Shown piece by piece: positions 1 through 2,508 of a DNA stretch of 64,000 bases (positions are counted from its first letter, which is position 1; every line of letters begins with the position of its first letter). Both the position numbers and the translations under genes were made by a program. This DNA comes from Escherichia coli (GTDB lineage Bacteria; Pseudomonadota; Gammaproteobacteria; Enterobacterales; Enterobacteriaceae), in NCBI RefSeq assembly GCF_011045215.1, contig NZ_CP049201.1; one strand, given 5' to 3'. Under the pieces are notes generated by a model. The model did no database searches, was not told the origin of the DNA, and worked only from the letters and a program-made list of their open reading frames with translations.

Positions 1-74
1 GACTGAAACAGATTAGCGGGCTGACGGAACTGTTTCAGGAAGAAAATTTCAGTCAATCCTGGACTGTTAATTAA
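1..74 (+). CDS. 3-prime end of an unidentified gene running in from upstream of the window (partial)
   Basis: Open frame from codon at 3 reading ...LKQISGLTELFQEENFSQSWTVN then TAA at 72-74; a diverged copy of the same tail occurs at 46078..46135. Product not recognised. Confidence 0.3.
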   Translation, partial: LKQISGLTELFQEENFSQSWTVN

Positions 75-244
75 TCGTAATGTTCCGGGGACCTCATCTT
101 TCACAGAAATATTCTGTTCATTAGCATTCCGGTATTCGTATAACTTCTTTCTGTGGAGAGTAAACAATGCCCAGGATGCGATGGACGCTTGATCAGAAAA
201 AACATCACGTTGCCGCATGGCGCGCAAGCGGCCTTACCCGTGAA
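74..244 (+). repeat. IS66-like left-end segment, copy 1 of a 171-bp direct repeat (copy 2 at 2339..2508)
   Basis: Near-identical to 2339..2508 (one T indel in a homopolymer); contains the start of the TnpA-like ORF at 167. Confidence 0.8.
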
Positions 245-343
245 CAGTACTGTGAACTTTACGACATTCCGTTTAAATCCCTGCGCCAGTGGCCGCAGGA
301 TGTCGCAAAAGCCGAAAAACGGCTCTTCCGCAACCTGGGTTGA
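167..343 (+). CDS. IS66-family TnpA-like HTH accessory protein (58 aa)
   Basis: ATG at 167 preceded by GGAGAG; translation MPRMRWTLDQKKHHVAAWRASGLTREQYCELYDIPFKSLRQW has the R-x-W...SL-x-x-W pattern of IS66 Orf1/IS3 OrfA HTH proteins; the ORF-track ORF 153..368 is in another frame and judged less likely. Confidence 0.5.
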   Translation: MPRMRWTLDQKKHHVAAWRASGLTREQYCELYDIPFKSLRQWPQDVAKAEKRLFRNLG

Positions 344-439
344 GATTTTCATGCCAGTGGACTCATGACCCTCTGCCTGAGTAGTTCAAATCCGGCTCGA
401 CTGCAAAATGGCATCTGAATCGATCGCAGTTTGGCATTC

Positions 440-1929
440 CATATCCTTACCCATAAATCCGAGTGATGTTATTCTGTTGATAAATTAACCATAATTTAGA
501 GGAACTATGGAAAACTGGGTTATTAAGGAGCTGGAATCTCTGAATGTTGGTGATATCAGGCTCGAAAAGCGAATAAAGCACGTTCTCAGTGTGCTTAGCC
601 GTTCACCAAAGGAAAGTATTCCCGTATCCTGCCGTACCTGGAGTGAGACAAAAGCTGCTTATCGTTGCTTTTCCAGTGATAAAATTTCAGCCGATAAAAT
701 CATGGCTCCCCATAAGAAAAATATCATCGAAAGGACTAAACAGTTTAAACGGGCTCTGGTTTTACAGGATACGACTGAACTAAATTATTCTGGTCAAAAA
801 AAGAAACAGGGCGTCGGTCCCAGACGACATGAAAATGAGCGAGATTTGTTTATTCACCCTCAATTGGTTATAAGTGATTCAGGTATTTGCTTAGGGGTTT
901 ATGATGATTATCAATGGTTCAGAAAAGAACTCAAAACTCAGAAACAAAGTCGTAAAGAAATAACTAATGATTCACTTCACAGGAAACATATCAGTGAGAA
1001 AGAAACAGGACGGTGGATAGAAGGATATAAAAAAGCAACAGAACTGGCTAGGTCCTGTCCTGATACCCAGATAATTTCTGTTTCAGACCGTGAAGGTGAT
1101 ATTTACGACCTCTTTGAGAGTGCAGAAAATGAAAGTGGGATAAAGGCTGACTGGCTCGTAAGAATGAAGAGCATTAACCGGGCTATACTGAATTCATCAG
1201 GAAAAAGAGACTCATTACTCCTGAATGAAAAAATGATGCAGATTTTGCCACAGCAGATAATTGAGTTTACCCTTCCGGAAGGACGAGGACAACCTTCCCG
1301 CAAAGTCCAGCAGGAGCTACGCTTAGCAAGGTTGACGCTACATCCACCCACCGGTCGAAGAGGAAAGTTACGTTGTTCTCCGGTAACGGTAACTGTATTA
1401 CTTGCAAAGGAAATAAATGCTCCAGAAAGTGTCCAGCCATTAGTATGGTGGCTAATGAGTAGTGTACCTCCAGAAAAGCTGACGGAACCCGCACAGCTTA
1501 TTCAATGGTATTTATTACGCTGGCAGATTGAAGTTTTCTTTAAGGTATTAAAAAGCGGATGTCAGGTTGAGAAATTACAACTTGAGACATTTGAACGCAC
1601 AAGGAACTGTCTGGCCTTATACCTTATAATCTCATGGAGAATACTTTATCTTAGCTCATTGTATAAAATGGTTCCGGAGGAACCCTGTGATTTAATTTTC
1701 GAAAAGAAAGAATATGAGTATCTCTGGATATTGGTAGAGAATACGCCTCCACCTGAAAACATACCGAATATAAGAACGGCGGTTTTAATGCTTGCAAGAT
1801 TAGGAGGATATCTGGCAAGAAAAAATGATTCGCCTCCAGGCCCTAAGACTATATGGTCAGGATTAACACAATTAATGCTGTCAATTAATGCCATAGAAAT
1901 AGCCCAGAAAACTTGTGGGTAAGGGTATG
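440..1929 (+). mobile_element. IS4-family (IS50-like) insertion sequence, copy A
   Basis: 14-bp imperfect terminal inverted repeats CATA(T/C)CCTTACCCA at 440..453 and 1916..1929, flanked by a 9-bp direct repeat TTGGCATTC (431..439 and 1930..1938); single transposase ORF fills the element. Confidence 0.75.
507..1922 (+). CDS. IS4-family transposase (DDE, IS50/Tn5-like)
   Basis: 471-aa ORF with LQDTTELNY, DREGDIYDLF, YLLRWQIEVFFKVLKSGCQ and C-terminal ARLGGY segments typical of IS4/IS50 transposases; identical copy on the minus strand at 51335..52750. Confidence 0.85.
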   Translation: MENWVIKELESLNVGDIRLEKRIKHVLSVLSRSPKESIPVSCRTWSETKAAYRCFSSDKISADKIMAPHKKNIIERTKQFKRALVLQDTTELNYSGQKKKQGVGPRRHENERDLFIHPQLVISDSGICLGVYDDYQWFRKELKTQKQSRKEITNDSLHRKHISEKETGRWIEGYKKATELARSCPDTQIISVSDREGDIYDLFESAENESGIKADWLVRMKSINRAILNSSGKRDSLLLNEKMMQILPQQIIEFTLPEGRGQPSRKVQQELRLARLTLHPPTGRRGKLRCSPVTVTVLLAKEINAPESVQPLVWWLMSSVPPEKLTEPAQLIQWYLLRWQIEVFFKVLKSGCQVEKLQLETFERTRNCLALYLIISWRILYLSSLYKMVPEEPCDLIFEKKEYEYLWILVENTPPPENIPNIRTAVLMLARLGGYLARKNDSPPGPKTIWSGLTQLMLSINAIEIAQKTCG

Positions 1930-2021
1930 TTGGCATTCGAATCGATCATGATTTGGCATCCATCTCCGATCACAGTTTGGCATCACAATCGATCACGATT
2001 TGGCACGCTTCCGATCATTGA

Positions 2022-2345
2022 TTGGCATCCTGCCAGTCACTCCGGGAATTAACTCTTTTCGCCACAGTCTTCATTGCCGTGTTTAAACCAATGGAGACGG
2101 CAATGTCCAGAAAGAGAAAATCCAGGAGCACTATGGAAACCTGTTTTAAGATCCTTCAGCTCAAGTTCGACCAGAAGCTGACTAACCGTTGTATCGGGCT
2201 GACATTACACATCAGCGCCTCAACCGTTTTTGAGGTTCTTGCACGCTTCAAAGCCTCTTCTCTGTCATGGCCATTACCTGCTGATATATCCCATGACACG
2301 CTGGAGAAACTCATTTTTCCGCCCAAAGACACCTTTGCATCGTAA
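2022..2345 (+). pseudogene. istA: IS21 istA 5-prime fragment (about 107 codons)
   Basis: Translation identical to the N-terminus of the full IstA at 49589..51235 up to ...DTLEKLI, then diverges and stops. Confidence 0.8.
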
Positions 2346-2508
2346 TGTTCCGGGGACCTCATCTTCACAGAAATATTCTGTTCATTAGCATTCCGGTATT
2401 CGTATAACTTCTTTCTGTGGAGAGTAAACAATGCCCAGGATGCGATGGACGCTTGATCAGAAAAAACATCACGTTGCCGCATGGCGCGCAAGCGGCCTTA
2501 CCCGTGAA
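2339..2508 (+). repeat. IS66-like left-end segment, copy 2 of the 171-bp direct repeat, with truncated TnpA-like start at 2431
   Basis: Matches 74..244; homology ends at ...CCCGTGAA (2508), after which the sequence differs. Confidence 0.8.

Follow-up and report, generated by a model that had tools for sequence, protein, structure and literature searches.

Roughly 170 bp of sequence occurs twice, in direct orientation, near the start of a 64,000-nucleotide stretch of the Escherichia coli contig NZ_CP049201.1 (assembly GCF_011045215.1; the whole stretch is here called the window). The question raised by this locus is what the repeated sequence is, whether its two copies arose from one insertion or from two, and what set the points at which each of them ends. 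The elements were mapped by blastn against annotated intact copies and by protein-family scans (Pfam, NCBIfam), and their coordinates are collected in Table 1, where reference records carry the prefix L.

Identity of the repeat

The two copies of the repeat, at 74-244 (171 nt) and 2339-2508 (170 nt), show a likeness far above chance, and the near-identity with a single T indel in the original prediction was confirmed by their comparison. The sole difference lies in a T-run at 98-100, which reads CATCTTTCAC in copy 1 and CATCTTCAC in copy 2 as well as in 5/5 reference copies, the extra T being private to copy 1. Judged from its sequence, the repeat consists of two left ends of a single known IS66-family element of E. 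coli. The true IS66 sequence comprises 77-244 and 2342-2508, starting at G77 and G2342 (GTAA...), and the terminus is fixed by six independent copies with different flanks that diverge exactly before GTAATG. The leading ATC common to both repeat copies is unrelated flank outside IS66; in copy 2 it is IS21 istA sequence, and after ...TTTGCATC the uninterrupted IS21 of reference L007 reads on AGAGCTTG. The IS66 part of the repeat covers the first 167/168 bp of the element, with the inverted repeat GTAATGTTCCGGGG and the first 26 tnpA codons. Both copies thus open the same TnpA-like reading frame, as had been proposed: the encoded residues are identical to residues 1-52 (copy 1) and 1-26 (copy 2) of the reference 109-aa TnpA, and the copy 1 product matches the NCBIfam IS66 TnpA model (E=1e-7).

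The IS66-family reference element, which is common in E. coli (e.g., NZ_CP010124.1 69077-71847), is 2771 bp long and has the gene order tnpA-tnpB-tnpC (PGAP annotation of the intact L001 and L005, 97-99% identity). The family assignment is borne out by such intact copies with an 8-bp target duplication, which in L001 is GGAAGAAG on both sides. The terminal inverted repeats begin 5'-GTAA, and the left repeat GTAATGTTCCGGGGACC matches the right repeat GTAATATTCCGGCGAAC at 22/30 positions. The window copies resemble the family in these GTAA inverted repeats, in a small TnpA, in a TnpC with DDE_Tnp_IS66, zf-IS66 and leucine-zipper domains, and in 97-100% DNA identity to the references. They differ from an intact element in that copy 1 is only 245 bp long, whereas copy 2 lacks the 3' part of tnpA, tnpB, 55 tnpC codons and a matching target duplication.

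Copy 2 is not an orphan end. It opens an internally deleted IS66, which starts again at 3951 and extends to a right inverted repeat at 5725. The resumed part encodes a TnpC with matches to Pfam DDE_Tnp_IS66 (PF03050, E=5.4e-91), zf-IS66, LZ_Tnp_IS66 and IS66_C and to NCBIfam NF033517 (E=1.7e-131). Of the three genes, the window retains only the 5' ends of tnpA and, from tnpC, codons 56-527; tnpB is absent. The element that begins with copy 2, which we refer to as copy X, is a non-autonomous, internally deleted IS66.

An 8-bp target duplication is a feature of an intact insertion. No such duplication was found among the three IS66 flanks in the window, AATTAATC, TTTGCATC and TTTCGATT, none of which pair, and no partner of AATTAATC, the last 8 bp of the copy 1 left flank, was found at any IS66 right end. 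The missing duplication indicates later rearrangement and is no argument against the IS66 family. On the left, the matching stretch of L005 (3001-3068) belongs to a gene whose annotated product is a ParB N-terminal domain protein. On the right, the chromosome of E. coli C5 is collinear with the window from base 5726 onward and has no IS66 end there, an "empty site" at 5725/5726 that rests on this one genome, the sole strain found carrying that stretch.

Table 1. Features of the window, with positions, strand and basis of assignment.
Feature	Position	Strand	Basis
Left flank of IS66 copy 1, 3' end of ParB-N-terminal-domain-like gene	1..76	+	88% identity to L005 3001-3068
IS66 copy 1, element positions 1-245: left inverted repeat, tnpA ATG at 167, 52 codons	77..321	+	97-99% identity to intact L001, L003, L005
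Uninterrupted ISEc11 off-target site GTGAACAGTACTGTG in copy 1 tnpA	240..254	+	Sole GTGAA-N(2-3)-TACTGTG match in 64 kb
Terminal 80 bp of ISL3-family (ISEc38-like) element, starting with inverted repeat GGCTCTTCCGCAACC	322..401		95-96% identity to annotated ISL3/ISEc38 ends in L006, L007, L009
IS21-family (ISSso4-like) left terminus, first 38 bp	402..439	+	Matches L004 1473-1510, L007 3001-3036
Complete IS4-family element, Tn5-type transposase ORF 507-1922	440..1929	+	Pfam and NCBIfam matches, 9-bp duplication
IS21-family left end continued and first 69 istA codons (from 2133), cut by IS66 copy 2	1930..2341	+	97-99% identity to L004 3001-3366, L007 3020-3394
IS66 copy 2, element positions 1-167: left inverted repeat, tnpA ATG at 2431, 26 codons	2342..2508	+	100% identity to L003, L005, L012
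Chimeric IS1111-family element, intact 339-aa DEDD transposase at 2658-3677	2509..3950	+	ISEc11-type (A) 2509-3113, type B 3128-3950
Predicted seekRNA core, type B; guide segments ATCTGCTCTG (3789-3798) and GGGAGAATA (3815-3823)	3766..3850	+	Positional equivalence to ISEc11 segments
IS66 positions 995-2771: tnpC from codon 56 (fusion ORF 3863-5365), right inverted repeat ending ...CCGGAATATTAC	3951..5725	+	98.9% identity to L001 2495-4271
Chromosomal right flank TTTCGATT...	5726..5760	+	Collinear with E. coli C5 chromosome, 98.9-99.5%
Second, complete IS21::IS4 composite, 7-bp duplication GTATAAC	48718..52855	-	99.7% identity to 402-2341, identical IS4 junctions

Insertion layers between the two copies

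Copy 1 does not continue for a further 157 bp to an IS21 terminus at 402, as had been suggested, and IS21 is not the element that cut it. IS66 homology stops at 321, and the cut at 321/322 is made by the end of an ISL3-family (ISEc38-like) element. Members of this family are characterized by an ISL3 transposase and the terminal inverted repeat GGCTCTTC...; of the element in the window only the 80 terminal bp are left, with no transposase sequence, and this end is in turn cut by IS21 at 402. The sequence beyond had been described as a partial IS21. The IS21 left end, with its repeated TGGCAT...GATC terminal units, is indeed present and 98% identical to L004, where the genes are labeled istA and ISSso4-family istB by PGAP, but a complete IS4-family element inside it had been missed. 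This element (1490 bp) lies between two copies of the 9-bp target sequence TTGGCATTC (431-439 and 1930-1938), a duplication read from the sequence, has the inverted repeats CATATCCTTACCCA and CATACCCTTACCCA, and encodes a transposase with matches to Pfam Tnp_DNA_bind, DDE_Tnp_1 and Dimer_Tnp_Tn5 and to NCBIfam transpos_IS4_3 (E=1.5e-103). It is 100% identical to a copy in L004 and to positions 51328-52817 of the window, and the complete IS21::IS4 composite in the window is inverted relative to the partial copy at 402-2341.

Two other readings of this part were rejected. The IS21 fragment of L007 does not share the truncation at 2341, since it reads past that point. The ORF at 2022-2345, which matches the NCBIfam "IS66-like TnpA" model, is not a third IS66-type element; at the DNA level it shows 97-99% identity to istA of annotated IS21.

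A chimeric IS1111-family element at the end of copy 2

The original prediction had copy 2 cut at 2508 by sequence leading into an IS110-family element. The cut stands, and the element is more precisely an IS1111-type ISEc11 chimera, whose presumably RNA-guided off-target insertion sets the repeat length. The sequence at 2509-3950 is a clean mosaic of ISEc11 (type A) and a relative (type B): the approximately 200 informative sites are all A-type up to 3113 and all B-type from 3128, with a single change between them. In the transposase, every residue that differs from A is at or beyond position 173, and every residue that differs from B is at or before position 125. Types A and B share 87.7% DNA and 92% amino-acid identity, and the crossover lies within only 14 bp of identity between them. 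The transposase matches Pfam PF01548 (E=3e-11) and PF02371 (Transposase_20, E=7e-22) and NCBIfam transpos_IS110 (NF033542, E=6e-99); it is bordered by non-coding regions of 149 bp on the 5' side and 273 bp on the 3' side, and the subterminal inverted repeats ATGAACGCATCCC and GGGATGCGTTCAT are set in from the termini of the element by a few bases.

ISEc11 itself was reportedly treated by Prosseda and colleagues in 2006. The chimera is like ISEc11 in its left 605 bp (2509-3113), which match the PGAP-annotated element at all informative sites, in the subterminal inverted repeats, the DEDD transposase and the 3' non-coding seekRNA region, and in the cut after GTGAA. Unlike ISEc11, it has a right part of 823 bp, including the predicted seekRNA, that comes from the type B relative and has guide segments matching the IS66 tnpC site, and its left flank is the off-target GTGAA/CAGTACTG and not GTGAAAATACTG.

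Target sites and guide segments

According to Siddiquee et al. (2024; PMC11187229), ISEc11 has the target GTGAAAATACTG, and its 3' non-coding region contains the seekRNA. In IS66 tnpA, ISEc11 sits at GTGAA/CAGTACTG, a look-alike of the cognate GTGAA/AATACTG; the full look-alike target GTGAACAGTACTG keeps both half-sites of the cognate, with one base more between them. The motif GTGAA-N(2-3)-TACTGTG has its one match in the window against 0.02 expected. An insertion of ISEc11 into tnpA at this look-alike of its target is the probable reason that copy 2 stops at 2508. Copy 1 keeps the same off-target site uninterrupted, and the two therefore derive from different IS66 copies. This agrees with the prediction that two IS66 ends were each interrupted by a different IS in layered insertions. 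The present flanks of the chimera are CCCGTGAA on the left, where copy 2 terminates and abuts the ISEc11 left end, and AGCAGATGAAG on the right. The right junction is the cognate tnpC site of type B, and the left junction is the ISEc11 off-target site with its extra base between the half-sites.

The two short guide segments of ISEc11, ACAGTATTTT and GTGAAAATA, match the top and bottom strands of its target GTGAAAATACTGT, and those predicted for type B and the window element match the IS66 tnpC site GGAAGAAGCAGAT (AGCAGAT, GGAAGAA). The same fold architecture is predicted for the A and B seekRNAs, whose outer stem contains one compensatory pair, and thermodynamic support for the fold is weak (z-scores -0.4 and -1.4). 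An Rfam scan of 2300-4100 gave no curated-family match in the seekRNA region, and only a chance-level hit to ssnA (E=0.46). The situation is similar to the retargeting described for ISEc11 and ISXne4 (PMC11187229), in that a related IS1111-family pair has kept the seekRNA stem while the target-matching segments and the insertion sites differ. The A/B pair is, however, closer (92% vs. 72% transposase identity), and both of its members target the same host element, IS66, and have recombined into a chimera.

Related arrangements in plasmids and genomes

Plasmid pRHB06-C19_2 (L012) carries IS66 1-167, ISEc11, IS66 165-995, type B and IS66 from 995 onward, in this order, with two ambiguous junction bases common to the IS66 165- segment and the ISEc11 end. 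Its left junction is identical to that of the window. With both elements in one IS66, this plasmid has the arrangement predicted for the precursor of the chimera. ISEc11 in tnpA with both junctions, and with IS66 continuing after it, is present in four PLSDB plasmids. A synthetic junction, in which the right end of the IS1111 element is followed by IS66 from position 169, was found in 0/5,426 complete E. coli genomes; this count taken alone speaks against a tnpA insertion, but the precursor is present in the PLSDB plasmids. A 2-nt or 4-nt core exchange at the off-target junctions was rejected as a model, as every register needs one additional A to give both of them. In L012, the off-target insertion has one A more than a base-conservative exchange predicts.

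Record L002 has the same outer junctions as the window, with a different crossover point and other flanks; the difference in crossover could be due to two independent deletions or to one deletion followed by gene conversion. The exact 1-6000 arrangement was found in 0/5,426 E. coli genomes and 0/72,556 plasmids.

Alternative explanations

We also considered the possibility that a single IS66 was present and that its left end was duplicated locally, either by replication slippage or by a segmental duplication spanning the IS21 fragment. Zero substitutions over 167 bp in directly oriented copies 2.3 kb apart would fit such an event, as would the lack of target duplications to prove separate insertions, but the identity is uninformative, since the 167 bp are shared without a mismatch by further IS66 copies. 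Furthermore, copy 2 begins exactly at the IS66 terminus against uninterrupted IS21 istA, a hallmark of junctions made by transposition, and ends at an ISEc11 junction that is absent from copy 1, where the site at 240-254 is intact. The unit of copy 2, chimera and tnpC also occurs with other flanks, in L002, and a local duplication is thus very improbable. Even less credence can be given to an assembly artefact, in which repeated IS copies were collapsed or chimerised to produce the arrangement or the mosaic. Regions dense in IS elements are classic sites of misassembly, and the exact 1-6000 arrangement is missing from all genomes and plasmids searched. Yet all junctions coincide to the base with known element termini, the 9-bp IS4 duplication is perfect, and the switch from A to B occurs in 14 bp of identity, which is too short for a k-mer collapse. 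Independent records moreover have the same left junction, L002 has the whole deleted unit, and each type of junction recurs in records other than the window.

It is likewise highly unlikely that copy 2 was shortened by a deletion beside a lone IS110/IS1111-family element at IS66 994/995, with ISEc11 never having been in tnpA. Such a deletion could be transposase-mediated, or could result from illegitimate recombination with the left junction of an ISEc11 located elsewhere, at the microhomology GTGAA; this motif does occur both at the tnpA site of IS66 and in the cognate left flank of ISEc11 (GGTGAA/AATG). An accident of microhomology, however, does not need the right half-site TACTGTG that the tnpA site also has, and the window element is an A/B mosaic with one switch. 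The absence of an undeleted tnpA insertion from the complete E. coli genomes is countered by the four plasmids in which ISEc11 lies within a continuing IS66.

Proposed history of the locus

We therefore favor the explanation that the locus very probably contains two left ends of one IS66-family element, from different copies, in a one-sided nested stack within an E. coli chromosomal island. The element boundaries, the A/B mosaic and the existence of the precursor are established by the sequences; from them we infer the recombination pathway and the following order of events. An IS66 copy Z (77-321) would first have been entered by an ISEc38-like ISL3 element (322-401), and this element by an ISSso4-like IS21 that already carried the IS4-family element (402-2341). 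A second IS66, copy X (2342-5725), would then have inserted into IS21 istA. In an ancestor of copy X, the seekRNA-guided IS1111-family element ISEc11 may have entered tnpA at the off-target look-alike, with the retargeted type B relative at its own cognate tnpC site, IS66 position 994/995. Homology-driven recombination between the directly oriented ISEc11 and type B would have deleted IS66 168-994 together with the equivalent of one element, leaving a single chimera and fixing the retained IS66 left end at 167 bp. The length of the repeat would thus be set by the IS66 terminus on the left and by the target choice of ISEc11 on the right. A later one-sided deletion, or an exchange between IS66 copies, could explain why IS21, ISL3 and copy Z lack their right halves and why the right flank of copy X was replaced. 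Since no flanks pair, we infer both the insertion of copy X into IS21 and the loss of these right halves.

Counting against this history are the crossover in only 14 bp of A/B identity, the extra A in L012, the unpaired IS66 flanks, the different crossover point of L002 and the dependence of the empty site on the C5 genome. A stretch of 14 bp is short for a RecA-type exchange.

Implications

The corrected annotation comprises six pieces of elements instead of three, drawn from five IS families, with IS66 reaching 5725 and with 2509-3950 as an ISEc11 chimera. All of these components are of known kinds and represent ordinary debris, and the understanding of how the families work is unchanged. 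The locus resembles the nested IS "graveyards" of E. coli and Shigella islands and plasmids, with IS families inside one another, truncations without target duplications and repeated IS fragments in direct orientation; there is no difference in kind, and only this combination is unique among the records searched. The 167-bp direct repeat 2.3 kb apart, the 1.9-kb inverted IS21::IS4 repeats 46 kb apart and the non-autonomous IS66 are substrates for rearrangement, and the region could reasonably be a hot spot for further recombination, as was originally suggested.

It is conceivable, although rather doubtful, that the locus records a natural route for the exchange of targeting modules among seekRNA-guided IS1111-family elements. 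Along such a route, an off-target insertion with a spacer one base longer would place ISEc11 in direct orientation beside a retargeted relative in the same host IS, and recombination would then yield an intact-ORF chimera with the N-terminal transposase half and left end of ISEc11 and the C-terminal half and seekRNA of the relative. If the chimera is mobile, the transposase halves and guide RNAs of elements that are 8% diverged at the protein level would be interchangeable in nature, and bulged off-targets would be used in vivo. For RNA-guided transposition, the locus adds a small natural data point, consisting of an ISEc11 off-target with an extra base and of recombination between differently targeted relatives.

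The repeat is the left end of an IS66 element

Direct comparison of 74-244 with 2339-2508 bore out the original prediction of a direct repeat of an IS66-like left end carrying the same tnpA start. The only difference is one T in a T-run, and both copies have the same start codon, with 52 (copy 1) and 26 (copy 2) encoded residues identical to the 109-aa reference TnpA. The extra T, at 98-100 in the left inverted-repeat region, is private to copy 1, which reads CATCTTTCAC; copy 2 and five reference copies read CATCTTCAC. The assignment to IS66 rests on matches to an intact 2771-bp element, on all four IS66 TnpC Pfam domains in a 500-aa ORF (3863-5365), and on inverted repeats that start with GTAAT and agree at 22/30 positions. 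The proviso that the repeat might match no IS66-family end is thereby removed. Intact copies were numerous in the 5,426 complete genomes of E. coli and the 72,556 plasmids searched; one of them (NZ_CP010124.1, 69077-71847) has tnpA, tnpB and tnpC and is flanked by a perfect 8-bp duplication, GGAAGAAG.

The element sequence starts at G77 in copy 1 and G2342 in copy 2; six independent copies with different flanks diverge exactly ahead of GTAATGTTCCGGGG. The ATC preceding copy 2 is istA sequence, which in an uninterrupted IS21 goes on with AGAGCTTG. Copy 1, predicted to be cut by IS21 at 402, loses IS66 homology at 321, not 401; an ISL3-family element cuts it at 321/322. The "partial IS21" does have its left end, but an intact IS4 element is hidden inside it. 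Copy 2 is cut at 2508 as proposed, but it forms the left end of copy X, an element whose right end lies 3.4 kb further.

Features of the left part of the window
Feature	Coordinates	Remark
Flank, 3' end of ParB-N-domain-like gene	1-76	
IS66 copy Z (copy 1), positions 1-245	77-321	
Terminal 80 bp of ISL3-family, ISEc38-like element	322-401	begins with inverted repeat GGCTCTTCCGCAACC
ISSso4-like IS21, left end and first 69 istA codons	402-439 and 1930-2341	
Complete IS4-family element, Tn5-type transposase	440-1929	perfect 9-bp duplication TTGGCATTC
IS66 copy X (copy 2), positions 1-167	2342-2508	
IS1111-family element	2509-3950	
IS66 copy X, positions 995-2771	3951-5725	98.9% match
YfdX	6141-6752	C5 collinearity
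Truncated porin gene (pseudogene)	7281-7919	C5 collinearity
ProQ/FinO and type VI secretion cluster	within 5726-16000	C5 collinearity

ORF 3863-5365 (+ strand) begins within the right end of the IS1111-family element and runs in frame into tnpC codon 56, giving 29 foreign residues followed by TnpC 56-527. The same fusion is labelled as intact tnpC by PGAP in E. coli mip270_22 and 52F4.

An ISEc11 off-target insertion in tnpA

In two undeleted IS66 references (L003 and L004, the latter from strain 52F4), an IS110/IS1111-family element stands at IS66 position 994/995 and follows ...CCTGGAAGAA, whereas in the window and in mip270_22 the same left terminus adjoins IS66 ...CCCGTGAA, and the next ~50 bp are different. 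The window-type left end recurs with 100% identity in many genomes, and PGAP names it ISEc11. Its usual place is the tnpB gene of a different IS66-like element, with the flanks GGTGAA/AATG...CATATA/AATACTGTGG. According to Siddiquee et al. (2024; PMC11187229), ISEc11 is an IS1111-family element with the target GTGAAAATACTG and a guide seekRNA in the 3' non-coding region, and it forms circles only with target-derived sequence on either side. Where the repeat ends, IS66 tnpA reads GTGAA-CAG-TACTGTG, containing both ISEc11 half-sites with one extra base between them, and the guide segments match it in part (CCGTGAA on the left, TACTGT on the right). Against an expectation of 0.02, the 64-kb window has a single occurrence of this pattern; it lies at 240-254 in copy 1, at the exact point of divergence between the copies.

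The IS1111-family element is a chimera

We aligned the window element with ISEc11 (type A, locus L010) and with its relative resident in IS66 tnpC (type B, loci L003 and L004), which have transposases of 92% amino-acid identity. The roughly 200 informative sites were 100% A-type over 2529-3113 and 100% B-type over 3128-3950. The transposase ORF is intact, differing from A only at residue 173 onward and from B only at residue 125 or earlier. The single A-to-B switch predicts as precursor one IS66 whose tnpA carried A and whose tnpC carried B, and this arrangement was found in plasmid pRHB06-C19_2 (CP057984.1) and three sibling records: IS66 1-167, ISEc11 (99.9%), IS66 165-995 (starting with two ambiguous junction bases common to the ISEc11 end), type B, and IS66 from 995 onward. 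Its ISEc11 has a left junction identical to that of the window and the right junction ...GTTCATATA/ACAGTACTGTGAAC. Recombination between the directly repeated A and B elements of such a precursor would yield the window structure. The mip270_22 copy has the same outer junctions and switches type between 2706 and 2732, which points either to another, independent deletion or to gene conversion at a later stage. In the two switch intervals, A and B are identical over only 14 bp and 25 bp.

The off-target insertion in the plasmid (2160-2180 and 3600-3625) was not base-conservative: its flanks CCCGTGAA and ACAGTACTG hold one A more than the empty site CCCGTGAACAGTACTG, and no 2-nt or 4-nt core register was found that gives both junctions. 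Separately, window 2527-2577 (element positions 19-69) is hypervariable between ISEc11 and type B, with 33 differences and a 14-nt indel. At this left end, ISEc11 has GGTGAAA and CAGTAT and type B has ATGAAGC, each similar to the target of the element itself, although the seekRNA is published as part of the 3' non-coding region.

In that region, A and B have a common stem (GACUCAC/GUGAGUC versus GACUCGC/GCGAGUC, a single compensatory change) and differ in the segments at the same two positions. A has ACAGTATTTT and GTGAAAATA there; B has ATCTGCTCTG and GGGAGAATA, which match AGCAGAT and GGAAGAA in the tnpC site of IS66. To judge by these segments, type B is a retargeted relative of ISEc11, in parallel with the ISEc11/ISXne4 pair (PMC11187229). 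The window chimera has exactly the seekRNA of B, with the B target on its right and the A off-target on its left. Given the need for target-derived flanks (PMC11187229), excision of the chimera may be impaired, a suggestion made with low confidence; the left flank still agrees with the B guide at about 6/8 positions.

Order of insertions and surroundings

Copy 1 is continuous across the ISEc11 site and so cannot come from copy X or its precursor. Together with the clean IS66 terminus of copy X within IS21, this uninterrupted site supports two separate IS66 elements. The simplest reading is a nested series in which ISL3 would have inserted into copy Z, the IS21::IS4 composite into ISL3, and copy X into IS21. 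For the right end of copy X, we give even chances to a later single event, either an adjacent deletion or exchange with another IS66. No 8-bp duplication pairs any of the three IS66 flanks (AATTAATC, TTTGCATC, TTTCGATT), and the right halves of IS21, ISL3 and copy Z were not found within the 64-kb window. From 5726 onward, the sequence is collinear (98.9%) with the chromosome of bovine E. coli C5, the sole comparator for that stretch, and the C5 sequence left of this point is absent from the window. Judged by this collinearity, the surroundings resemble a chromosomal island of E. coli. At 45742-46302 there is a second PAPS-reductase/ParB/PerC-like module, 74-82% similar to a plasmid (L005).

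The window has a second ISSso4-like IS21::IS4 composite, a complete one, at 48718-52855 (- strand), with 99.7% identity to the partial one at 402-2341. It has a 7-bp duplication of its own (GTATAAC) and shares the IS4 junctions of the partial composite, which indicates that IS21 and IS4 transposed together. Lying ~46 kb apart as inverted repeats, the two composites could invert the intervening segment. In strain 52F4 (L004, 1473-3010), a 100% identical IS4 follows the same TTGGCATTC of the IS21 left end (window 431-439) in the opposite orientation, and the IS21 in the window contains one more 47-bp terminal repeat unit (1930-1976) than L004 and another reference (L007). The difference from 52F4 could reflect a target preference of this IS4 for IS21 terminal repeats, or inversion with repeat loss. 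The IstA N-terminus (2022-2345, + strand) matches NCBIfam NF038385, "IS66-like element accessory protein TnpA" (E=9e-16, positions 7-67 of 190), which suggests an N-terminal DNA-binding domain common to IstA and the long TnpA of ISEc8-type IS66 elements, and could mislead automated annotation.

All components are of known kinds, and most are nearly identical to copies already annotated. None of the other records searched has this exact arrangement, but it is typical IS debris. Wider interest comes only from the natural ISEc11 off-target with its one-base bulge and from the A/B chimera.
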